Shown here: positions 1 to 44,157 of the stretch, one piece after another
Numbering within the stretch: position 1 is the stretch's first letter
How the letters are laid out: each line of letters opens with the position of its first letter
Origin: a virus
Lineage: Duplodnaviria > Caudoviricetes
Strand: one strand, 5' to 3'
Length of the DNA: 50,047 nucleotides
IMG/VR virus record: IMGVR_UViG_3300032893_000070
Coordinates: 1 to 50,047 of that record
Translations under genes and position numbers: made by a program
Notes under the pieces: generated by a model
Seen by the model: the letters and a program-made list of their open reading frames with translations, nothing else
What the model was told of the DNA's origin: nothing
The model's database searches: none

Positions 1-94
1 CTTGGGGAGAAGCATTCGGGTCCGAGACCCAAAGGAGCCCCGCACTGGACGGTGTGGTGATGGTATTCAACCCCGGAATGGTCTGGTTACTCAA
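1..94 (-). CDS. 5' fragment of an alternative allele of the tail fiber gene at 48951-49904 (runs off the contig)
   Basis: Reverse complement reads TTG-SNQTIPGLNTITTPSSAGLLWVSDPNASPQ versus MANQTIPGLNTITSPSSAGLLWVSDPNASPQ at 49811-49904. An RBS GGAGGTGG lies upstream (about 100-107, minus strand). Confidence 0.85.
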   Translation of the reverse strand, partial: MSNQTIPGLNTITTPSSAGLLWVSDPNASPQ

Positions 95-107
95 TCAAAC
101 CACCTCC

Positions 108-136
108 TTGACAGTTTGATTAGCCAAAGCTACACT
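108..136 (+). promoter_or_regulatory. sigma70-type promoter for the HNH gene, probably giving a leaderless mRNA
   Basis: TTGACA(108-113)-17 nt-TACACT(131-136). The ATG is at 143, the expected start-site distance, and there is no SD. Confidence 0.75.
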
Positions 137-142
137 CTCTGT

Positions 143-580
143 ATGACACGAGGACAGAGAAGGTGGAAAGAACTTTCCCCAGAGGAAAAGAAAAAGGTTA
201 TCGAGCAGCACAAGGCTTACAGGAGAGCCAACAAGGAAAAAGTGAACGCATGGGTTAACGCTTACAACGCCTCTCGACCTGAAGAGAAAAGGAGGTCGGC
301 GAGAGAGACCCAAAGAAAGCGACGAAGACAGATATTGGTTCACTATGGAGGCAAATGCGCGTGCTGTGGTGAGAAGCGTTTCGAGTTTCTTCAAATCTCT
401 CACAAGCATCAGAATGGTGTTCCTTCGGCAAGGAGAGTTGGTGGTACTTCCCAAGTAGTCAACATCATTATCAGGACTTGGCCGAAGAATATCCAAGTTC
501 TTTGTGCTAATTGTCATCAGGCTCTCGATCTCTGGGGCTTTTGCCCGCACAAAAAACCTCACAAGACTACCCCTCTATGA
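143..580 (+). CDS. HNH endonuclease (free-standing, putative homing), antisense to the late operon
   Basis: Basic helical N-terminus, then CACCG...L-Q-I-S-H...N-I-Q-V-L-C-A-N-C-H zinc/HNH motif. The real start is likely ATG 143. Confidence 0.8.
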   Translation: MTRGQRRWKELSPEEKKKVIEQHKAYRRANKEKVNAWVNAYNASRPEEKRRSARETQRKRRRQILVHYGGKCACCGEKRFEFLQISHKHQNGVPSARRVGGTSQVVNIIIRTWPKNIQVLCANCHQALDLWGFCPHKKPHKTTPL

Positions 581-1118
581 TCGGAGGAACGATCCGCTCG
601 CGCCCAATCCCGTCGGGTTTGTAGCGTCGAGCACGTTCGGTCTTCAGGATCGACGCAATGTCCTTGTAGTCTCCATTCGGGATGCAGTAGTACTTCCCGC
701 GAAACTTCCGTATGAGCCTCTCGGGAAAACTCTGGTTGCACACCGTGCAGATCCACGATCTCTCGCCCATCTTCGCATCGGTCTGTCCCTGGTTGGCGTA
801 AAGGACATACCCATGGGAGAGCGTGATGGTTCCCCCCGCAGACTCCGGCAGAACGCTTCCATCAATCACGATCATCTTCTTGGGCGCGACGTTCTGGATG
901 ACATACTGTCGCCCATTATTCGCCCCCGAGGAGGTAATCGTGATGAGCATTCCCGCCGCGTAGCCCGAAGTGACGAAGTTCGTGGAAGTGCTGTTGATCG
1001 AGTTGTCGGAAGAAAGGAAAGAGATATCCGTCCCCGAAACAGTGGGGACCCCCGTAGTGGAGGTCCCCGCAAGCACTTGCTCCTTGGTAAAGAACTGGAT
1101 CTGACCCGCGTAGGCCAT
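567..1118 (-). CDS. Virion-associated protein with C-terminal Cys motif (CTVC...YC)
   Basis: S/T/G-rich beta-like N-terminus; lies in the late operon downstream of the capsid genes. Confidence 0.6.
   Translation of the reverse strand: MAYAGQIQFFTKEQVLAGTSTTGVPTVSGTDISFLSSDNSINSTSTNFVTSGYAAGMLITITSSGANNGRQYVIQNVAPKKMIVIDGSVLPESAGGTITLSHGYVLYANQGQTDAKMGERSWICTVCNQSFPERLIRKFRGKYYCIPNGDYKDIASILKTERARRYKPDGIGRERIVPPIIEG
571..705. repeat. Imperfect direct repeat of 49913-50047 (135 nt, 7 mismatches; 619-705 identical to 49961-50047)
   Basis: Direct alignment by eye. Mismatches at 594, 600, 606, 609, 612, 615 and 618 are all third codon positions of the minus-strand gene. Confidence 0.95.
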
Positions 1119-4760: not shown

Positions 4761-5088
4761 CTTCCTTCTCCTCGAAGCGCATCTTGGCAAGCTCGATGAG
4801 AGTGTTATACGCCCGGGTGTAGGCTTTCGCCTCTCCCTGTCTCACCCTCAACTCCTTGTCCGATACGGCTTCGCTTTCCAACGCAGCCTTCGCCACTTCC
4901 AGTCCATCGACGATCAAAACCTCTTGGAGCAACTGCCAGTACTCGCTACCCCGCAGGCCCCGAGCCAACTCCGCCAACCTGCGGAGCACCCGCGACTGCT
5001 CCCTGTACTCCGGGCTGGCCAGCTCCTGCGGGTCCAGCGACATTAGGAGCGACAGGGACTCCGGCCTGTCCTCCAGGATTCCCGCCAT
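4741..5088 (-). CDS. Small helical head-assembly protein (Bbp19-like position)
   Basis: SD GGAGGT 4 nt before ATG 5088; 'RQGEAKAY' motif typical of post-portal genes; overlaps the portal 3' end. Confidence 0.65.
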   Translation of the reverse strand: MAGILEDRPESLSLLMSLDPQELASPEYREQSRVLRRLAELARGLRGSEYWQLLQEVLIVDGLEVAKAALESEAVSDKELRVRQGEAKAYTRAYNTLIELAKMRFEEKEDGKAGD

Positions 5089-7024
5089 TTGCACCTCCCA
5101 TTTGATTCCGTGCAGCATCCAGGGCACTCATCTGCTGGGCGTTCACCGCTCTCAACATCTGAATGACTTTCTCCCACTTCTTCACGTCCTGGAGATAGTT
5201 CTCCGTGTCGTCGAAATCCGCGAAGTGATAGCTCTCTTTGAGCAGGTTCACGCTTCCCACGTAGATCTCAAGAAGTTGCGACCAAGCGTCAGGCGCGACT
5301 TGTTTCAACTGCATACCCTGCGGGCCGAACACCGCCTGAGAGAGCTGAACGAGCTGCGGCTGCGCCTGGAAGGTGAGTTCCATGAGCTGGATGAGGGTTT
5401 CCCTCCGCGCTTCGTAGGAGTGCTCGATGTCGGTGGTATAGATGTCGAACTTGAATCTCCTCGGGATGTCACTCACATCCATGTTGAGAATCCGGTCGAG
5501 CTGAGAGATCTCCTCGTCGGTGAGCCTTCCAAGCTGCCTCTCGTTCCAGATCACCCGCTCGCGGTTCCTCACGAGCTGAAAGACCACAAGAAGCCCCACC
5601 CGTGACCAGCTCTCCGACGTGCTCTCGATGGTGGTGGCCATGATGCCCTGGGAGGCCTGCATCCGCATCTCCTGACCCCGAAACGTGTCCCTCGTCCCGA
5701 GGGTCGGGTCGGCAAAGCCCCGGTCGGGACTCGACACTCCCGTGGCCTGAGCGGCGAGAGACCAGACCAAGTTCTCACTCTGGAGAGAGGAAGCGGGGAC
5801 CTCTCCCAGAGCGATCGGCTCCATGTCCTCCTTCGGGTTGTCGGTGATCCAGACCTTTCCCTGGTAGATCGTGTTTTTGTTCTCGCGAAGGACGGCCCGT
5901 CTCACCGCGAGCATCTTTATGGATGCAAGCTTCATCCCATCGTTTCGGAGGCGGTGGGTGCCCGAGGCCTCGTCCTGAAGGCCCTCGCAGATCTGCCCGA
6001 TCCCACGGCTTTCCAGCATGAAGCTCCTCGGGATGTACCCGAACTCCTGGAACTCCCTCGCTGCAATCCCGTTGAAGACCTTCCGAAGGATCGTCCGTGA
6101 GGGCGTATGGACGGTGAAGATCACGTCCTCCCACACCCCGTCGTCATCGATGTCCCAGAAGAAGTGAAACTCCATGAAGTCGATGACTTTCGGGCTCCCC
6201 GGGGCGAGATACCTCAGTTTCGCATTCGCCTGCTCGCTCTCATTCAGGTTCTCCCGCTCCCATGTCTTCGGGTCGATCTCTTTTCCGTCGGCAGTCTTGG
6301 GCTCATCGTAGATTCCCTGCTCGACCTTGTTCTGGAACTCATGGAGAGGGAGGTGGAGTTCATGCGCGATCCACGGCATCCTCTGGATCTCGTCCCAGAA
6401 CGGCGGATAGTAGGTGTCCTCCTGCGAGATCGGGATGATCGCCGGCCCGTCGTGGTAGGTCATCGTTTTCGTCTGCCCGTCATCGCCCTTGAACTTCCAC
6501 TCCAGCGTGTCCCACACGACTTTCACCATGAGCAATCCCATGAACGTCGCCTCGTCGCTTACGATACGCTTGATTTTCGGCATATTGAGGTCCGTCTGCG
6601 AGTAGGCGAGAATCCCGAGGTACTTTGTCATGAACTTCGCGTCATCGTGGCTTTCCTGGGTGTCGGCGTAGCTTTTCAGTTGCCAGAAAAACGGCTTTCC
6701 CGTGTCGTAGTACCCCTTCACCTTCGCGTAGGCCGTCTGCGCGTGGATCTGGGTGAGCGGCGGCATGATTCGAGACGCATTCGAGAGTGCGTGCTCGGCC
6801 GCAGTGGTCTCGGGCTGGGCTTCCCGCTGCTGGCGCCACTTCATCCACTTCTTCACGCGTTCGGCCCTCTCGCTTTTCGACGTTTCAAGCTCCTGAAGAA
6901 GGTAGTTGAGGATCTCGTCTCTCTTCTCATCCGAAAGTTCGATCGTAAGGGGGCTCGGCGAGGGCCGATCTTTCCTTGGGGTGTCATCATCGGTCTCGAT
7001 TTCTATGGTGGTCTGGTCACTCAT
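4946..7024 (-). CDS. Portal protein (P22-like)
   Basis: 692 aa after the terminase; 'G.L.VKVVWD', 'WDIDDDG', 'GIGQICEGLQDE', 'ATGVS' motifs and a Q/G/A-rich tail. Confidence 0.85.
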   Translation of the reverse strand: MSDQTTIEIETDDDTPRKDRPSPSPLTIELSDEKRDEILNYLLQELETSKSERAERVKKWMKWRQQREAQPETTAAEHALSNASRIMPPLTQIHAQTAYAKVKGYYDTGKPFFWQLKSYADTQESHDDAKFMTKYLGILAYSQTDLNMPKIKRIVSDEATFMGLLMVKVVWDTLEWKFKGDDGQTKTMTYHDGPAIIPISQEDTYYPPFWDEIQRMPWIAHELHLPLHEFQNKVEQGIYDEPKTADGKEIDPKTWERENLNESEQANAKLRYLAPGSPKVIDFMEFHFFWDIDDDGVWEDVIFTVHTPSRTILRKVFNGIAAREFQEFGYIPRSFMLESRGIGQICEGLQDEASGTHRLRNDGMKLASIKMLAVRRAVLRENKNTIYQGKVWITDNPKEDMEPIALGEVPASSLQSENLVWSLAAQATGVSSPDRGFADPTLGTRDTFRGQEMRMQASQGIMATTIESTSESWSRVGLLVVFQLVRNRERVIWNERQLGRLTDEEISQLDRILNMDVSDIPRRFKFDIYTTDIEHSYEARRETLIQLMELTFQAQPQLVQLSQAVFGPQGMQLKQVAPDAWSQLLEIYVGSVNLLKESYHFADFDDTENYLQDVKKWEKVIQMLRAVNAQQMSALDAARNQMGGANGGNPGGQAGVPVAPNVAGPAGAGQPGVQGAVAGAPQVGGVGSGPAG

Positions 7025-7040: not shown

Positions 7041-8903
7041 TCACGCCATTCCTACGGAGTGCAAAAGATGAGACACGACCCACGCTGCACTTCCGAGGGC
7101 CAAAAGGATGCCATAACCGAACAAAGAGTCGTTTTCGACGAGTGAAAGCTCGTGCTCGATGTCGCTTTCCACCGCCATCTCGATCTCCTCGGCGTTCGCC
7201 GGCCGTCTCATCCACGAAAGCGCCTTCTCCGTCTCATCCAGCACGTCCACCCGGCGCGACGGAAAGGCATCTTTCTCCTGTTGAAGCTCGATCACCGCCT
7301 CAGGTGTAGCATAGATGAGGCCTTGCGCGAAATACCACCCCACAACGGCCCGTATCCGCGCGATCTTGTCGCCCTTGGCGGGCGCTTCATGGAGCGCGAT
7401 GTAGATTTTCCTCCGCTCCTGCTCTTTCTCAAGGAGTTGATAGAGCCCTTTCTGCATCGCGTTGGTCTCAAAGAGCGTTGCCTGAAGCAATCCCGGGAAA
7501 AGCTCCCACGCCTCGAAGATCGCATCGAAGGTTTCGTCCATCGTGAGGTACCCGACCTTGTTCCAGACACGGAAAGCGCGGTTTCCATCGTCCATGAACC
7601 ACACGGCGATGGAAGTCCGGGAGGTCAGAGCCGTCACCTCGCGGTCTTTCGAGGCCGCGTCAGTAGAGATCACCCCCGTTAGGGTCGCGCAATTCAAAGT
7701 TTTCACATCATCCGACAGCTCATCACGATATGATAGAAGAAAGAGATTGCTTCGCTTGTCCTCGAAAAGCTTGCAGGGCTTCACGACGTACTTGGTGAAC
7801 TCATTCAGGCCCGACTTCTGCGGCTTGTTCCAGTACTGGAGGGCTGCCGTCCAGGAGTCGAGCTTCGAAAGCTGCTTCTCATCTATCACCTCGGGGGCGA
7901 GCATCTCGCCTTCTTCCTGCACGAGGCGATAGTAGATGCTCCAAGAGCCTCCGGGGACGGGTCCCACGTCCTCGTCCATGGCCCCGACGACCTCTTTCGC
8001 ATCCTTGACGAACGCCGCGTAGCAGTCATCCTGGGAGTAGCGCGTCCCGACAACCCCGATACGCCCACGCTTTGCGCTCCGCAGGAGCGCCGATAGGTTC
8101 GTGTTCATGTACTTCTTGGCGTTCTCCATCATCACCGTGGCTTGGTATTGCCAGTCCACGGCGTCCAGCCCTATCGGGTCGTCGATATCGAGGTCGGTGA
8201 AGTGGTCTCCTTCTCCAGAGGAAGTGATCCCCGAGGCCTTGATGGTCGGCTCGGCGGCGAACCTCACCCGGTTGGGCATCACGATCACCTCGCCGTTCCA
8301 TTCCTTGGAGTTGGGAACGGGAACGCGCGAGGGAATGGGCGAGCCATCCGGGTACGCCCACCCGGGACCATAGAGAGCGGCGTAGAGGGCATTCGAGTCG
8401 ATCGTTTTCTTGGAAAGATTCTTGAATCCTTCCGCGCGCGAGATGACGGCGTTCACGAGGTTGATCGCAACGCTTGAGTCTCTCGTTGCCATCCAGGTGT
8501 TCGCACCGTGGGAGAAGATCGAAGACTTTCCATGTCCGCGCGGCATGAGGGCAAGCCACCTCGACCCGGGTGCCATGCAGGAGTCGCTCTGCCGCCAGTT
8601 GCACATGTCGAGATTCAGCGTGTCGTTGAGCCACTCGTAGGGGCCGAACGCACCGGCAATCACCTTGAGAAAAAACCACAGGTTGACAAGACCGGCCTGT
8701 CGCATGACGTCCATGGTTTGGCGCGATGAGGTCGTGGGATGGGCAGAGGTGATGTCGGCGTAGAGATCGGTGAGGACCTTCTGGCCGGTAGAGAAGTTGG
8801 GAAAGTCCCACGCCTCGGGATGCGGTCGGATGGCGAAGTGCGAGGGGATCTCGAAGGTGAGGAGAGAGCCGTCGTCGGATGCGATGCGCTTGTAGGTTTT
8901 CAC
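7041..8903 (-). CDS. terL: Terminase large subunit
   Basis: Walker A 'MPRGHGKS', Walker B 'GDHFTDLDIDDP', 'VVGTRY' and RNase H-like nuclease motifs ('STDAA', 'FETNAMQ', 'DVLD'). Probable GTG start at 8903 is coupled to the upstream TGA. Confidence 0.92.
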   Translation of the reverse strand: MKTYKRIASDDGSLLTFEIPSHFAIRPHPEAWDFPNFSTGQKVLTDLYADITSAHPTTSSRQTMDVMRQAGLVNLWFFLKVIAGAFGPYEWLNDTLNLDMCNWRQSDSCMAPGSRWLALMPRGHGKSSIFSHGANTWMATRDSSVAINLVNAVISRAEGFKNLSKKTIDSNALYAALYGPGWAYPDGSPIPSRVPVPNSKEWNGEVIVMPNRVRFAAEPTIKASGITSSGEGDHFTDLDIDDPIGLDAVDWQYQATVMMENAKKYMNTNLSALLRSAKRGRIGVVGTRYSQDDCYAAFVKDAKEVVGAMDEDVGPVPGGSWSIYYRLVQEEGEMLAPEVIDEKQLSKLDSWTAALQYWNKPQKSGLNEFTKYVVKPCKLFEDKRSNLFLLSYRDELSDDVKTLNCATLTGVISTDAASKDREVTALTSRTSIAVWFMDDGNRAFRVWNKVGYLTMDETFDAIFEAWELFPGLLQATLFETNAMQKGLYQLLEKEQERRKIYIALHEAPAKGDKIARIRAVVGWYFAQGLIYATPEAVIELQQEKDAFPSRRVDVLDETEKALSWMRRPANAEEIEMAVESDIEHELSLVENDSLFGYGILLALGSAAWVVSHLLHSVGMA

Positions 8904-9085
8904 CGAAGCGTTGCCAGGTCCTCGGCGCTCACGCGGCCGTTTTTGACATAAGGCTCGCGCCATGCGTAGTTGTGCGCCTGGGCGGTCAGCTTAAAGGCCT
9001 CGGGTGAGAGGTAGAAGGACGGAGGGAAGACGGCGAGGATGGAGCCTCCGACGAGCCGTATCCGGGTCCAGCCGAAGGGAATCAT
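8900..9085 (-). CDS. Hypothetical protein
   Basis: 61 aa with ATGA/GTGA coupling at both ends. Confidence 0.5.
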   Translation of the reverse strand: MIPFGWTRIRLVGGSILAVFPPSFYLSPEAFKLTAQAHNYAWREPYVKNGRVSAEDLATLR

Positions 9086-23690: not shown

Positions 23691-24439
23691 GTCAGAAAGA
23701 GCGTGATGCGTTTGTGGCGTTTGTGCAAAGCGATCCGTGCTTCGATGAGTTGCAGGCATTCTGCATGCGGACCGACGCCGAGAAGTACGGACGGCTTTCG
23801 CCCGTTCGCTTCGCGGAGATCATCGTCGATCTGTTGAAGAGCAGGGCAGAGGCGGTAGCACTCCGCCGCTACCCCGACGAGACGCCCGATTCGGCATGGC
23901 TCGTGGAGTTGTCGCTCCCTGTAGATCACGCATGGTGGGATGGAGCGGGATTCACGATCGATGCTTGGAAAGCACGTCGCTTTGCTACTCGGGAAGAGGC
24001 GGTACAGGCGGCTCGATCTTTCCACCGTGCTCACGCAACCGAGCATGTTTTCCTCAAACCCGACGAGACGCCCGATGAGGATGAGTTCGGCCCCGTAACG
24101 GAGGCGGAGCTTGATGCGGCGCGTGGTCCTATCTACGGAATGGATAGGATGACCGCCGGAGACATCCTGCGCGAGACGCCAGCCCCCGCCGGGCCGATTG
24201 GAGTCGCTCCCTGCACCTGCATAAGGAATGTTCACTGCTCCGTTCATGGCGAGGAGAAGCCCGCCCCTCCCGAGGCAGCGAGGCGGTGCACGCGTTGCGG
24301 CGAAGTGGTCAAGGCGACTGACCTCAGCAAGCAGGGAGGGAAGTGGTACCACCCGGGCCACCAAAAGGCGAAGGGTGAACGGTGGATCTTGTGGTGCGGC
24401 CCCGTCATGGAGGACCCAAGCGCAGGAGGCGGGAAGTGA
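23687..24439 (+). CDS. Mosaic hypothetical protein
   Basis: Start MSQKERD; modules separated by PDETPD; C-terminal Cys motifs. Confidence 0.55.
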   Translation: MSQKERDAFVAFVQSDPCFDELQAFCMRTDAEKYGRLSPVRFAEIIVDLLKSRAEAVALRRYPDETPDSAWLVELSLPVDHAWWDGAGFTIDAWKARRFATREEAVQAARSFHRAHATEHVFLKPDETPDEDEFGPVTEAELDAARGPIYGMDRMTAGDILRETPAPAGPIGVAPCTCIRNVHCSVHGEEKPAPPEAARRCTRCGEVVKATDLSKQGGKWYHPGHQKAKGERWILWCGPVMEDPSAGGGK

Positions 24440-24548
24440 GTGACCTCCTTCTTTCTATAGTCCTCGCTGCCATAGTCTACGTGATCCTCATGGCAACTGC
24501 GTGGGTGGCATGGATGTGCTTGAAGTCGGACTACCCGGAGGGGCATGA

Positions 24549-26690: not shown

Positions 26691-28534
26691 AGCTCTTCCG
26701 AATCACCCGTACGAAGTCCAAGTGCTCGGTGTGTCCTCTGGACGGATACTGCACGAAAGTGAGGGGGGAAAGTGTCACAGAGACGCCAAAGATCGCCTTC
26801 ATCGGTGAGGCACCGGGCGAAGAGGAAGACCGATTTGGGCATCCCTTCGTTGGAAGTGCGGGTAAAGAGCTTGATCGAGTGCTTGCAAAAGGTGGAATCC
26901 ACCGACACAATGCTTATCTCCTCAATCTTATCAACTGTCGCCCACCTGCGAACGACCTTGACTCTCCTGAAGGAACGGAAGCAATGGTGGCGTGTCGGAC
27001 CGGACTCGAACAAGAGCTTGGCGAACTCCACAAACTCGGTGTACGGACGCTGGTTACTTTGGGAAATGACCCGACACATGCCCTCGGCATTGAAGGAACA
27101 ATTGGAAAAGTACGTGGCTCAGTTTACGAAGTCACAGTTGCGGGTCTGAACTTCTGGGCCGTCCCGACCTTCCATCCCTCCTACATCATAAGGGGCCAGT
27201 GGTCGGAGGAACCCACCATGGTCTCCGACGTGGCGAAGGCCGTCGATATCGCCCTGAAAGGGTACAGCCCGCCGAAGGAGAACTTCCTCCTCTTCCCTAC
27301 GGTGAAAGACATCGAGATAAGGACAAAGGACCTTCTCAAACGAAAGCCTCTCCTCGGCGTGGACATCGAGACCACGAGCCTCAAACCCTGGGACGGGGAG
27401 ATTTTCGTGGTGGCACTCGCCGTGTCGGGCGAGGAGGCGTTTTCCATCCCCTTCTTTTCCCAGGGCTACAAGCCCTACTGGAAGAACGGAGACCTCCATG
27501 TGGTCCAGGATTGTCTCAAGGAGATTCTCTTCGAGTGTCCGACTATGTATCAGAACGCTCCATTCGATGTGGGCTATCTGGAGCACCACGGATACCCCGT
27601 CGGGCGAATCGCTCACGATGTTCTTCTCATACACCACGCGATCCATCCTGAGCTTCCGCATCGGCTTGCTTACATCGTTTCAATTTACGGCGCCACCCCG
27701 TACTGGAAAGACGTCAAGTTTCCTGGGCAGAAGATGGGTGAGGTGGATGATGAGAAACTCAGGACCTACAATGCCCGGGATGCCGTGGTCCTCCATCAGG
27801 TGCTCCCGCCTCTCCTTGAGGATCTTAAGGACACGGGAACCGAGCACATCTACTACAACTACTCCCTGAGGCTCATCCGCCCCATCCTTTCCATCCAGAG
27901 GAACGGAATGCTGCTCGACCGAAACCGACTTTCCAAGTGGAAGAAGGAACTCGAACATGATCTCTCAGAGACCGAACGCAGTCTACGAAGTACCGCCGAA
28001 CTACCGGTGGGGTTCAACTTCCAGTCTCCTCATCATCTCTCATGGTGGTTCTACGGAGAGGCACCCTCAAGTCTTCCGAAGTGGAAGGCGGAGCTTGCAA
28101 GCTATGAGGAAGAAGGCACGCGAAAGAAGAAGGCTTCGGCCAAGTACAAGGATCTCACAGAGCGCGTTGCGATCTTCGAGAAGATCACGCCCTTGGCCCG
28201 GTCCCGTTCCAAGACCAAGCGGACGAAGACCGGGTTTGCGAAGGATGAGAAGGCACTCCTTCTGGCAAAGCTTGCGGCGACTACTGAGATTGATCTCATC
28301 TCTCGGTTTCGCCGTCCGACGCCCGAGCACCTCGCACGGTTCGACGAGCTGAATCATCTCCGAGATTGCCTTACTCTCTTTCAGAAACGGCAAAAGCTGG
28401 CCAAACTTCTTTCTACCTATACCGACTTCGAGACCGCACCCGACGGCCGCGTCCACGCCGGGTTCAAGATCCACGGGACGGCCACGGGGCGCCTCTCATC
28501 GGGTGAGGGCCAGGAAGAGAGTGAGAGCGTATGA
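26687..28534 (+). CDS. polA: DNA polymerase A, N-terminal part: family-4 uracil-DNA glycosylase + 3'-5' exonuclease + thumb
   Basis: UDG: 'C..C', 'IGEAPG.EED..G.PFVG.AG', 'NCRPP.N', 'TFHPSY'. Exo: 'DIET', 'QNAPFD', 'YNARD'. Ends 'TATGRLSS'. Confidence 0.92.
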   Translation: MKLFRITRTKSKCSVCPLDGYCTKVRGESVTETPKIAFIGEAPGEEEDRFGHPFVGSAGKELDRVLAKGGIHRHNAYLLNLINCRPPANDLDSPEGTEAMVACRTGLEQELGELHKLGVRTLVTLGNDPTHALGIEGTIGKVRGSVYEVTVAGLNFWAVPTFHPSYIIRGQWSEEPTMVSDVAKAVDIALKGYSPPKENFLLFPTVKDIEIRTKDLLKRKPLLGVDIETTSLKPWDGEIFVVALAVSGEEAFSIPFFSQGYKPYWKNGDLHVVQDCLKEILFECPTMYQNAPFDVGYLEHHGYPVGRIAHDVLLIHHAIHPELPHRLAYIVSIYGATPYWKDVKFPGQKMGEVDDEKLRTYNARDAVVLHQVLPPLLEDLKDTGTEHIYYNYSLRLIRPILSIQRNGMLLDRNRLSKWKKELEHDLSETERSLRSTAELPVGFNFQSPHHLSWWFYGEAPSSLPKWKAELASYEEEGTRKKKASAKYKDLTERVAIFEKITPLARSRSKTKRTKTGFAKDEKALLLAKLAATTEIDLISRFRRPTPEHLARFDELNHLRDCLTLFQKRQKLAKLLSTYTDFETAPDGRVHAGFKIHGTATGRLSSGEGQEESESV

Positions 28535-28866
28535 AAGAAATCATTCTGCACAAGATCCGTTTTGGATTGTCTACTATGGTTTCTCGAAAAGTAATCGAAT
28601 CCGCAAAGATTGAAGAGTACGATGACTTGTTGTCTGGCTCTGTAGTGAGAGCTTTCAAAGGATGGCTCTATGGGCAATGGATGGACCCTATTATCATAGA
28701 GACTCCTACATCTTGGTGGCAGATGTTCAAACGAGACGTTCTTCACACGAAGTACAGGAAGCACATAACTGAATACAAGCCAAGCGTTGTCTATCCGAAG
28801 ATAGACCTCCCGAGCGAGGAACACTACATCCATATCAGCAAGCTTGAGTACGGAGACAAAAAGTGA
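28531..28866 (+). CDS. Unrelated 111-aa gene inserted within polA
   Basis: AT-richer than its flanks and in a different frame; 'PTSWWQMFK' motif; no HNH, GIY-YIG or LAGLIDADG motif. Confidence 0.75.
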   Translation: MKEIILHKIRFGLSTMVSRKVIESAKIEEYDDLLSGSVVRAFKGWLYGQWMDPIIIETPTSWWQMFKRDVLHTKYRKHITEYKPSVVYPKIDLPSEEHYIHISKLEYGDKK

Positions 28867-41750: not shown

Positions 41751-42071
41751 TTAGTTACCCGCCGCCTTCCATGCCGCTTTCCATGCCTGGATGAATGTAG
41801 CCCCGAAGGCTGTCGCGTTCGCCGGCACCGCCACAAGGTTATTGATCGCTTGGAGGGTCATCTGGGCAAGTGTCGCGTTGGCCTGCGCCACGGGGTCCGG
41901 CGGCGGGGCCACAGGAACGGGCTCGGTCTGTGTTACCCCGCCCTGCGAGAGCCACGCTTGCACCTGCGCCATGAGAGGGTCGGAGGGGAGAACCTGATAT
42001 GGAAGACCGTTGAAAGTGACTACGTAGGAGCCGTCCGCGCGGGCGTAGACCGGTTGGGTGAAGTCGATCAT
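41751..42071 (-). CDS. Tail fiber assembly chaperone-like protein
   Basis: Start MIDFTQP (SD GGAGG); 'RADGSYVV..NGLPYQV...VQAWL' directly after a fiber gene. Confidence 0.55.
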   Translation of the reverse strand: MIDFTQPVYARADGSYVVTFNGLPYQVLPSDPLMAQVQAWLSQGGVTQTEPVPVAPPPDPVAQANATLAQMTLQAINNLVAVPANATAFGATFIQAWKAAWKAAGN

Positions 42072-42670
42072 GCGATCCTCCAAGCAAGAGCGACACCGGT
42101 GTTCGATGGGGAGGCCGCCTGGATTTGCGTCCCACCCGCCGCGATACCAGCGTTCCATCCCCCCGAGGTCCCCGTGCTCAAGTTGGAAATCCATGAAAAG
42201 TAAGCCCACGTTCCTCCGGCGGGAAGGTTCAACGCGGTATTGGGGGCGCCTCCGTTGAAGACCTCCCACTGCCCCACTCCCGAAGCCGACTGCGGAAGGG
42301 GGGCCTTCGTCGACGGATCCACGTAGGGCGCTTTCCACTGGTAGGAAAGGCTATTGTACGCGGTGCTCCCATCCCCGATCTTGAAGTACTTCGTGTCCGT
42401 CTCGTAGCCGATCTGACCCTTCAGGAGTACGGGGTTGGAACTTGCAAGGTTCGCTGCCGTGTCACAGACCGCATTCGTGAGACCCGTCCCCGTTCCCGAG
42501 AACGTTCCCGAAGCCTTCATAAGCCATGGAGAAGAAAGCGTCAGCGTCGGCGGGTTCGTGACATTCGGGTCGTCGAACTGAAACGCCTTGAACGGAAAGA
42601 ACTGCTTCTGGTACTGCTGGCTCTGGTCCTGGGGGTTGGTCTGGGGGAAGTTCGGCGAGTCACCGGGCAT
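42068..42670 (-). CDS. Short tail fiber with Mtd-N/hyaluronidase-like domain
   Basis: 'NPVLLKGQIGYETDT.YFKIGDG.TAYNSL.Y'; C-terminal 'LPAGGTWAY...WRIA'. Confidence 0.8.
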   Translation of the reverse strand: MPGDSPNFPQTNPQDQSQQYQKQFFPFKAFQFDDPNVTNPPTLTLSSPWLMKASGTFSGTGTGLTNAVCDTAANLASSNPVLLKGQIGYETDTKYFKIGDGSTAYNSLSYQWKAPYVDPSTKAPLPQSASGVGQWEVFNGGAPNTALNLPAGGTWAYFSWISNLSTGTSGGWNAGIAAGGTQIQAASPSNTGVALAWRIA

Positions 42671-42673
42671 CTT

Positions 42674-43678
42674 CTACCGGTCCTCTTCGATCCAAAGGCT
42701 GGGGAAGTCGTACTCAAACCGAAGCGCCCCGTCTTGGATCGCCGTCTGCATGTCGCTTTCGAACTCTTTTCTCAGGGCGTACGCCCCGTCCCACTCACGA
42801 TCCCGGAGCATCCCGGTCTTCGTGGCCCACTTCACGATCATCTCGGAGAACTGATCCGGGACAAGCGGCAACTGACTCGTGGTCAATAGCGCCTCACTCA
42901 ACCCGTAGTAATGAAGCTCGAAGACCATCGAGTTGACCGGAGCCACGTCGAACTCGATCCCCCCGCCGATCCCCGACGCATACCACCCGCCCGCAGGGGT
43001 CTCAAGGTCCCAGAACATCGCCGGGTACAGGTTCGTCAAAACTTGCTTGTAGAGGGGAGTTCGCTCGTCATACCTCCGTATGTCCTTCTGCATCTGCACG
43101 TCGTAGATCCACAGAGCCGATGCAAAATCCTCCTTCGGATCGACAGGGATGAACTCATTCGTGTGGTAGCCCGTTCCCGAGTTGAGCGAACAGGCCCACC
43201 ACTTCTTATAGATGTTCACGGTGGTCCCCACCGTCGGCGTGGAAAGAAGGTTGTCCGCAAGCGTCAGGACCGGAGATGTGGAGTTGTCACTCGCGATGAC
43301 GAGGTGCTGCTCCGAGCCCTGAGAGCTTGCGTTGGCCGCGCCGATGTCCACGATCCAGTTGACGTACTTGTTGGTCATCGCGATGAGCCCCGTGATCGCC
43401 ACCTGGTTCGTTCCCGGGACCGACGCCACCGTTCCCGTCACGACCGAGTTCTGGAAGAAGCTCCGGCGCTCCAGCGATCGAAACCGTACGAATGTCCCGT
43501 CGGAAAGTTGAGTTGAGCATACCTTCCGATACGCACGACCAAGCCATTTGAGAATCTTTTGTGCCCCTGCTGTCGTGAGATCTACTGTACCGTAGGTAGC
43601 TCCATACGGATACAAGTCCGTGCTCTCTCCAAGATTTTCGTAGACCTCAGTTATCATGTCTCCGACGCTGTACGACAT
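42674..43678 (-). CDS. Head-tail adaptor / tail tubular protein A-like
   Basis: 'MITEVYENLG', 'KWLGRAYRKV' and 'PLVPDQFSEMIVKWA' adaptor pattern. Confidence 0.65.
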   Translation of the reverse strand: MSYSVGDMITEVYENLGESTDLYPYGATYGTVDLTTAGAQKILKWLGRAYRKVCSTQLSDGTFVRFRSLERRSFFQNSVVTGTVASVPGTNQVAITGLIAMTNKYVNWIVDIGAANASSQGSEQHLVIASDNSTSPVLTLADNLLSTPTVGTTVNIYKKWWACSLNSGTGYHTNEFIPVDPKEDFASALWIYDVQMQKDIRRYDERTPLYKQVLTNLYPAMFWDLETPAGGWYASGIGGGIEFDVAPVNSMVFELHYYGLSEALLTTSQLPLVPDQFSEMIVKWATKTGMLRDREWDGAYALRKEFESDMQTAIQDGALRFEYDFPSLWIEEDR

Positions 43679-44157
43679 TACAGTAGCCCTGCCATTTTGT
43701 TCGTGTACGCGAACTCTCCAAAGACTTCTATCGCTGCCTCATCATAGGCCCTTGCAGCTTCTTCTTCATCCTTGTAGGAACCCAAGCCTACGAACCTACC
43801 ATCCTTTCGATAGTAGGCCAGCCATCGGTTTCTCGACCTTCTCCAGCTTACTCCTTTGAACTTGGAAGAGCATCCCTCACGGAATCTTCTGGTATTGGCT
43901 GTGTTCTGTGATGCAGTACAAATACGGAGATTTTCCCTTCGATTATCAAGTCCGTCTCCATTGATATGGTCCACAGAATCTTTTCTTGAAGGGTTCAAGA
44001 TCAATCTGTGCATGGAAACAGAGTGGCCGTCTATCCAAGAGAAGGCGTAGAATGCCTTGTGGTTGGGGCGACAATTCCACTTGAAGTGGGACAACCATTC
44101 GAAGTCCGCATCGTCTACGAGAGCAACCTTGCCTCGGGTCAGGGGTATCTCTTTCAT
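43678..44157 (-). CDS. HNH-AP2 domain endonuclease
   Basis: 'MHRLIL...VDHINGDGLDNRRENLR' plus AP2 'SKFKGVSW...LGSY..EEEAARAYD'; AT-richer than its flanks. Confidence 0.93.
   Translation of the reverse strand: MKEIPLTRGKVALVDDADFEWLSHFKWNCRPNHKAFYAFSWIDGHSVSMHRLILNPSRKDSVDHINGDGLDNRRENLRICTASQNTANTRRFREGCSSKFKGVSWRRSRNRWLAYYRKDGRFVGLGSYKDEEEAARAYDEAAIEVFGEFAYTNKMAGLL

Follow-up and report, generated by a model that had tools for sequence, protein, structure and literature searches.

Why does a viral contig classed as linear carry the same gene junction at both of its ends, once with and once without a small endonuclease gene? The question is raised by the record IMGVR_UViG_3300032893_000070, which was analysed over its entire length of 50,047 nucleotides (nt), called the window in what follows; the record carries the class linear (no end repeats), and its completeness is estimated at 100%. 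The left 705 nt of the window are a second version of the locus at 49811-50047. Version A, at the left end, contains a gene for an HNH-type protein between a gene here called gene X and a fiber-like gene; version B, at the right end, has the same two genes next to each other. Considered as a whole, the two ends are best explained as a full turn of a circular genome plus a second haplotype that differs by a homing-type HNH gene, an explanation to which we give a probability of about 0.65. Its parts are not equally firm: a wrap-around of two versions differing by the HNH gene is very probable, while a free-standing homing mechanism is only slightly favored. As to the source of the assembly, the best reading is a mixed population, or two co-occurring relatives, differing by the free-standing HNH gene.

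The comparison of the two ends involves the following features, all on the minus strand except the second, which has no strand:

1..94, minus strand: 5′ end of the fiber-like gene, allele A (31 codons, with TTG at 92-94; the contig ends inside the gene).
95..570, no strand: segment found only in allele A (the HNH cassette), about 470 nt, with no counterpart in allele B or in the related genome G001.
567..1118, minus strand: gene X, allele A, 183 amino acids (aa), from the list of open reading frames (ORFs).
594..618, minus strand: tract with the seven third-position differences between A and B, from the alignment; the tract also varies among relatives.
619..705, minus strand: 87 nt identical to 49961-50047, the joining overlap, from the alignment.
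48951..49904, minus strand: fiber/spike-like gene, allele B, 317 aa.
49906..50047, minus strand: 3′ part of gene X in allele B, with 46 codons and the stop TGA; it runs off the contig and is separated by 1 nt from the start of the fiber gene.

The likeness of both ends is far beyond chance, as the BLAST comparison of the repeats within the record gave E values of 4.6e-57 and 3.2e-20. Between 1-94 and 49811-49904 there are 21 mismatches in 94 positions, of which 14 fall on third, five on first and two on second codon positions of the minus-strand fiber-like gene. Expressed in codons, 15 of 31 differ between the two fiber starts, 12 of them synonymously (including a TCT/AGC change of Ser at codon 29), the remainder being two residue changes (S2A and T14S) and the start codon itself, TTG in A and ATG in B. 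The start of fiber allele A translates as MSNQTIPGLNTITTPSSAGLLWVSDPNASPQ, and its counterpart in B as MANQ...ITSPSS.... Between 571-705 and 49913-50047 only seven of 135 positions mismatch (594, 600, 606, 609, 612, 615 and 618), and they are followed by the 87 nt, 619-705, that are identical in both versions. All seven are third codon positions of gene X, for which the chance expectation is (1/3)^7, about 5e-4; the change at 609 exchanges D and E and is hence nonsynonymous. Since all seven differences are at third positions, it seems reasonable to interpret that both copies of gene X evolved as working genes, as alleles would. The protein of gene X ends in ...IIEG* (TAG) at the left and in ...IIEGS* (TGA) at the right, and its stop is separated from the fiber start by 1 nt at the right (49905) versus 472 nt at the left (95-566).

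A preliminary description of this DNA, made from the letters alone, had noted these facts, and they stand. The count of mismatches in the fiber start, with its two residue changes, TTG/ATG start and Ser switch, was obtained again in full, the seven mismatches in 594-618 plus the identical stretch agreed base for base, and the spacings, with the antisense HNH gene in the longer one, were recovered from the ORF lists and the sequence. The same description proposed units of about 49,342 and 49,810 nt. The repeat spacings between the ends are indeed 49,342 nt (HNH-less form) and 49,810 nt, but the latter is a genome unit only if fiber A is assumed to be as long as fiber B, and no more than the 31 codons of fiber allele A listed above are present on the contig.

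The meaning of the repeated locus becomes clearer when related records are considered. Relatives at the junction were found by scans with gene X and the capsid protein; six records cover it (G001, G002, G003 and the records of L018, L019 and L021), and L020, which ends before the junction, was left out. In all six, gene X is followed at less than 15 nt by a fiber gene with the conserved N-terminus, and each has one gene X and one fiber gene at the locus. No match to the window HNH protein was present in any of the six, in the stretches or records searched. Two relatives with a single copy of the locus are complete and circular, namely G003 (47,077 nt, with end repeats) and G001 (a record of 49,429 nt with an exact terminal repeat of 127 nt). 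Over its full circle, G001 aligns collinearly with the window, with an identity of about 85%. The window stretches 27-91, 571 onward, and 49803-50047 all map to a single place of G001, 24293-24540 and beyond, the matches stopping at window 91 and resuming at 571. The HNH-less unit of 49,342 nt is close to the 49,302-nt unit of G001. Because G001 and G003 are circular, single-copy and of similar unit size, the ends of the window are interpreted as the same locus met twice around a circle.

On this reading the record, in spite of its linear class, represents a complete circular genome of about 49.3 kb plus 705 redundant left-end bases. It was classed as linear because the overlap of its ends is imperfect, with 95% identity over 135 nt, then a length difference of 468 nt, then 78% identity over 94 nt. 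Compared with the end repeats that assemblers produce on circular viral genomes, the window is alike in that its ends overlap as in G001, at a similar unit size, and different in that the overlap of G001 is exact. The end duplication itself is partly an assembly effect; the redundant bases come in part from another haplotype and the locus is counted twice in the record, while a reading that places the left 618 bases on the same molecule as the rest needs support from reads. True terminal repeats of linear phage genomes are copied from one template and are identical. A true direct terminal repeat was therefore discarded for the window, in view of the identities and the length difference of its ends. 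An attempt to read the word length of the assembler from the 87-nt exact overlap was also abandoned as undecidable, the end position being compatible with several graph scenarios.

What version A has in excess over version B is the segment 95-570, in which, or overlapping which, three features are found:

143..580, plus strand: HNH-type endonuclease gene, 145 aa, free-standing, antisense to the neighboring structural genes.
108..136, plus strand: match to a sigma-70-like promoter, TTGACA-17-TACACT, whose end is 6 nt upstream of the HNH start codon.
101..109, minus strand: Shine-Dalgarno-like AAGGAGGTG, part of the insert and 6 nt upstream of the TTG with which fiber A starts, with a putative role in the translation of that fiber.

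The base composition of the insert departs from its surroundings, with a GC fraction of 0.47 versus 0.589 for the whole window and, for the HNH gene, a GC3 of 0.49 versus 0.64-0.87 in the neighboring genes. The gene is an ORF of its own between gene X and the fiber gene, outside any intron or intein; it runs 14 nt into the end of gene X, which places its stop codon inside the shared flank. The promoter match agrees with the consensus at 10 of 12 positions; three such sites occur in 1-1300 versus 0.4 expected, and it is a consensus match only. On the other strand, gene X of allele A owes its TAG stop, immediately behind the Gly codon, to the insert, and an in-frame TGA is found at 95-97, directly upstream of the start of fiber A. 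The hexamer TCAAAC (95-100) resembles TCAACT of allele B, which corresponds to the old Ser codon and stop of gene X, and looks like a relic of them. Judging from this arrangement, the insertion point would have been the last sense codon of gene X. Both neighbors would remain expressible, because the insert provides gene X with a stop and the fiber gene with a strong ribosome-binding site.

Concerning the nature of the 145-aa protein, its PHROG matches comprise 11 families, of which eight are HNH endonucleases (best E 6e-9), two endonuclease VII and one terminase small subunit. In Pfam the sole match is Endonuclease_7, with 16.9 bits, under the cut-off of 23.6; PF01844 matches three of seven HNH homologues, weakly (best E 0.012). 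An alignment of the seven homologues shows the invariant patterns GGKC.CC.E..FL...H....G, LC.NC and G.CPH, in a CxxC...H...CxxC layout, and in the window protein the corresponding motif residues are H87, C72/C75, C121/C124, N123 and H125. Before the catalytic His, where Asp is usual, both the window protein and P0002, its best non-self homologue (57% identity), have Ser. The two proteins also share the end ...TPL, the codons and stop for which lie, in the window, in the gene X flank; this hints that P0002 may occupy the same insertion site in another phage. Homologues amount to 16,090 representatives at E<=1e-3, 4,011 at <=1e-10 and only six at <=1e-30 (own protein included), that is, the HNH family is large and the branch of the window protein sparse. 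The predicted structure (pLDDT 76) gave a best Foldseek E of 0.38 and a VIA Z of at most 4.0, a weak value; most of the top structures are HNH domains (Cap5, Cas5-HNH, Gme, SciA, Endo VII), none of them significant, and a search of PDB with the sequence profile of the HNH family gave 0 matches at E up to 1. Altogether, the HNH assignment is a reasonable one.

A closer classification was tried with the homing family of the Endo VII motif (DHHRN), for which section 7 of PMC6083498 gives the pattern CxxC - (D)H.H - R - CxxC, with Asp and Asn conserved in 'most' members. The window protein resembles this F-CphI/Endo VII-motif family in its CxxC - (D)H.H - R - CxxC layout and in its below-threshold Pfam match. 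It differs in having SHKH for DHDH and His for Asn after the second CxxC, although Arg residues do follow. As, moreover, T4 Endo VII aligns to the HNH model at a Z of 2.8 only, the filing of the protein in that family was rejected.

The flanks of the HNH gene had been regarded in the preliminary description as recoded, that is, as carrying synonymous changes that protect them against self-cleavage. This part of the description does not hold. At the fiber start the identity between A and B (77.7%) is about that of either allele to G001 (74.7% for A and 74.7% for B), and in the 48-nt tract next to the insert A has more in common with G001 (93.8%) than with B (85.4%), with 89.6% between B and G001. 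The idea that the tract of seven mismatches was deliberately recoded was likewise discarded, as the same third positions vary among all relatives. The flanks of allele A are 15-22% diverged from B, almost entirely at synonymous sites, and identity begins abruptly at 618/619. The HNH gene thus appears, from the sequence comparisons, to lie in a DNA segment of different ancestry that shows ordinary divergence, a pattern that would fit co-conversion from a diverged donor as well as a second lineage or a chimeric join. The stretch 619-705 is also identical at 85 of its 87 nt in G001, third codon positions included, and only two exact runs of at least 87 nt are shared by the window and G001 in about 40 kb aligned. 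Within that stretch, the 68-nt run 628-695 ties for ninth among the exact runs common to both genomes; such conservation might be due to a constraint at the DNA or RNA level or to recent exchange.

With these elements, the mechanism that we favor can be outlined. The contig would be one turn of the genome in its HNH-less form (49,342 nt) plus 705 bases at the left that would belong to another haplotype of the same sample. At the right end, haplotype B would show the arrangement of the relatives, with the fiber-like gene, of a receptor-binding type, 1 nt after gene X. In haplotype A the insert, about 470 nt long, would have entered gene X at its last sense codon, and the HNH gene in it would have its own promoter-like site. 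During co-infection, the enzyme would cleave genomes without the HNH gene, at the gene X/fiber junction or close to it ('intronless homing'), and repair from the HNH-bearing genome would copy the HNH gene and neighboring donor sequence, possibly including the fiber start or a different fiber module. The simplest candidate for the cut site is the HNH-less junction, which is disrupted by the insert; the preliminary description, which placed the site in 594-618 or 1-94, had left this candidate aside. Those features of a homing gene that can be seen in the window are the nuclease family match, the stand-alone intergenic placement and the presence/absence at one site.

So understood, the locus shows a familiar kind of phage polymorphism and no new kind of system. 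According to the excerpted text of PMC2988022, the free-standing endonucleases that T-even phages encode (seg, mob) are located between conserved genes, cleave relatives lacking the endonuclease, sometimes well away from the insertion site, and are inherited with co-converted flanks, which leads to marker exclusion; an HNH-family example is MobE, as an excerpt of PMC2790892 describes. The window is like them in showing a small, lone nuclease gene between conserved genes, present or absent at a precise site among relatives, and in the flanking DNA that accompanies the gene, which would be of donor type. It differs in that its HNH protein is only distantly related, with no PDB sequence match, in that the phage belongs to an uncultured 49-kb lineage that is not T4-like, and in that the gene is antisense and ends inside a neighboring gene. 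Closer in position are two other cases: in the available portion of PMC8594841, homing endonuclease genes of BASEL Markadamsvirinae vary around the tail-fiber loci, and in that of PMC12724721, lactococcal Skunavirus shows presence/absence of HNH genes at fixed sites. What these portions describe has in common with the window the variable HNH genes at fixed places beside diverse receptor-binding genes; the two states are found there in separately sequenced isolates, whereas in the window both are at the ends of one metagenomic contig.

Several observations weigh against this explanation. The exact overlap of 87 nt is unlike the clean 127-nt, word-length repeat of G001, and the end positions are not explained by the logic of the assembler. 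The nuclease activity of the HNH protein is not assured, given Ser for Asp, a Pfam score below threshold and a weak structure match. An independent contig with allele A was not found, in collections that may lack records near the window: scans of viral and metagenome contigs with the HNH protein gave nothing closer than relatives of 39% and 37% identity, located in unrelated contexts, exact DNA patterns of the A-specific fiber start and gene X tract gave 0 matches in viral contigs, and a scan with P0011 for copies of allele A gave one weak partial match. Finally, 619-705 is unusually conserved, so that A may come from another related phage and have been joined on. This last point leads to an alternative in which bases 1-618 would belong to a distinct, species-level related phage of the same sample, with the HNH gene and another fiber; the assembler would have joined both phages through the conserved 87-nt stretch of gene X, and the alleles would be orthologous loci of two phages and no polymorphism of a single population. 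We consider such a chimeric end unlikely, in spite of several facts that speak for it: the A-B identity at the fiber start is no higher than that of either allele to G001, A is nearer to G001 than to B in the 48-nt tract, the joining stretch is nearly invariant even in G001, with the 68-nt exact run inside it, and the left end stops within a gene, as a low-coverage side branch would. Against it, an 87-nt identity beside a tract that is 15% diverged fits a recombination boundary better than chance conservation, because so few exact runs of that length are shared with G001, and a separate contig of the second phage was not found in the scans with the HNH protein and with exact A-specific DNA, in collections from which close records may be absent.

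The preliminary description left a choice between a homing polymorphism in a circularly permuted population and a single genome with a duplicated cassette of gene end and alternative fiber. The former is retained as to two versions of one locus joined by wrap-around, given that the relatives are circular, single-copy and HNH-minus in six of six cases, and is given up as to the recoded flanks. The latter would place gene X, HNH, fiber A, a partial gene X end and fiber B in one genome, the assembler having broken at the repeat, with the remaining part of fiber A absent from the contig. It is true that contigs do break at repeats, that the right end stops exactly at the end of the exact repeat, and that the many interchangeable C-terminal fiber modules described below make two fibers per genome plausible. 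Nevertheless, such a duplication seems highly improbable: it has no support from the relatives, all six of which have a single gene X and fiber, and the circular ones (47.1 and 49.4 kb) match a single-copy unit of 49.3 kb; the seven differences in the gene X piece, all at third positions, are unlike those of a decaying fragment; and sequence unseen between the ends would be required. A further alternative accepts that the HNH gene is real and variable and denies that it is homing; the gene would code for a decayed or domesticated nuclease, acquired by illegitimate recombination, for instance a helper of packaging or of inter-phage competition that no longer drives its own spread. The replacement of the metal-binding Asp of the D-H pair by Ser, the weak Pfam matches and the other contexts of distant homologues (L009, L008) agree with it. 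However, the ORF is intact and keeps the zinc and His motif residues, Ser is common to P0002 and so a conserved variant, the absence of the gene from the six relatives means that it is not a core function, the gene is not beside the terminase genes (TerL, 7041-8963), and its low GC and antisense, intergenic, non-disruptive placement also speak against this possibility, which we regard as distinctly doubtful.

The two distant homologues just mentioned can be described briefly. In L009 the gene is beside ParB-like and terminase-like genes. In L008, a metagenome contig, a homologue of 37% identity is upstream of a polymerase-like gene; the long polymerase-like ORF at 8405-10372 (plus strand) of that contig appears to hold an intein-like insert with a LAGLIDADG-type motif.

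Concerning the neighbors of the insert, gene X codes for a virion-module protein of 183/184 aa with a Cys-rich C-terminal part; it had no Pfam or PHROG match, and orthologues are present in the relatives. The 317-aa product of the fiber-like gene, also without a Pfam or PHROG match, has a conserved N-terminus of 45 aa and, as predicted, a tailspike-like middle domain and a jelly-roll tip. Twelve non-self proteins share residues 1-45 at 61-88% identity and have at least four unrelated C-terminal types; the N-terminal pattern of the family is MANQTI.GL..I.SPSS.G.LW..DPNASPQDRS (window 48951-49904 protein and P0008-P0020). Among the C-terminal modules are GYYMGD-ending, ARRIG/ARRVG-ending, glycine-rich and other ones, and P0013 and P0019 look like fusions of two module types; the fiber gene of G001 has yet another, glycine-rich C-terminal type. 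The structure model of the 317-aa protein is of low confidence (pLDDT 62.6). In VIA-align, residues 58-163 matched a phage tailspike (Z 12.2, rmsd 2.4, 92 aligned), residues 58-165 matched tailspike domains at Z 10-12 (CBA120 TSP4 at 11.1) and a capsid spike at 10.1, and residues 171-314 matched the C-terminus of the Bd2133 fibre, a bacterial fibre tip, at 9.4. These data support a fiber/spike-like modular protein, of tail or head, with the conserved N-terminal anchor and exchangeable distal modules that are seen in receptor-binding fibers and tailspikes. In addition, there is a hint that allele A may carry a different fiber tip, because P0011 and P0020, both with an unrelated 222-aa module, have the residues that are diagnostic of this allele (ITTPSS).

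The HNH gene sits exactly at the boundary where the hypervariable fiber gene begins, and the fiber starts of alleles A and B are of different types. One could imagine that cutting by a selfish nuclease and co-conversion drive the exchange of the receptor-binding module as a host-range cassette, and that the two contig ends would show a sweep in progress; we regard this as speculative and improbable. Elsewhere in the window, the 200-aa protein encoded at 42068-42670 (minus strand) matches, with residues 70-111, the N-terminal segment of many PHROG tail fiber/tail spike families (best E 1e-11), and probably represents a further fiber or adaptor within the tail module.

The window contains one more gene of the HNH kind:

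43678-44157, minus strand: second free-standing HNH endonuclease gene, 159 aa (PHROG phrog_99, E 2e-37).

Its neighbors are a 334-aa structural gene on one side and a 62-aa gene on the other, and its product has an AP2-like tail. G003 carries the gene at the same site (73% identity), and G001 lacks it there, with a 14-nt spacer at the place and a 42% paralogue after its DNA polymerase gene. Because of this presence in G003 and absence at the site in G001, the comparison supports mobility, in that HNH genes would come and go in this phage lineage. The slot after the DNA polymerase gene (window 28537-28865 versus G001 2429-2913) holds in the window an unrelated 111-aa ORF (28531-28866), which had no PHROG match, and is another variable place between conserved genes.

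Pfam and PHROG searches of the window proteins gave the gene set of a tailed phage, with the portal protein at 4946-7024 and the major capsid protein at 1551-2453 in addition to TerL. The window also encodes a DNA polymerase, a primase/helicase, an exonuclease and a Sak4-like annealing protein, and one lysis gene was located:

47119-47538: holin.

The fiber-like protein had no match among 50,697 cultured-phage records, the search with TerL gave a single match (29% identity, to a metagenomic virus), and with the major capsid protein no prophage was found in one genome each of 185,579 prokaryotic species. The window represents a phage lineage without cultured relatives.

For this lineage, the locus provides a natural case of presence/absence of a free-standing HNH gene, in a placement that would harm neither of its neighbors and that adjoins a modular, fiber-like gene. 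Alleles A and B, in turn, constitute a concrete pair of substrates with which the target of the enzyme may be found.

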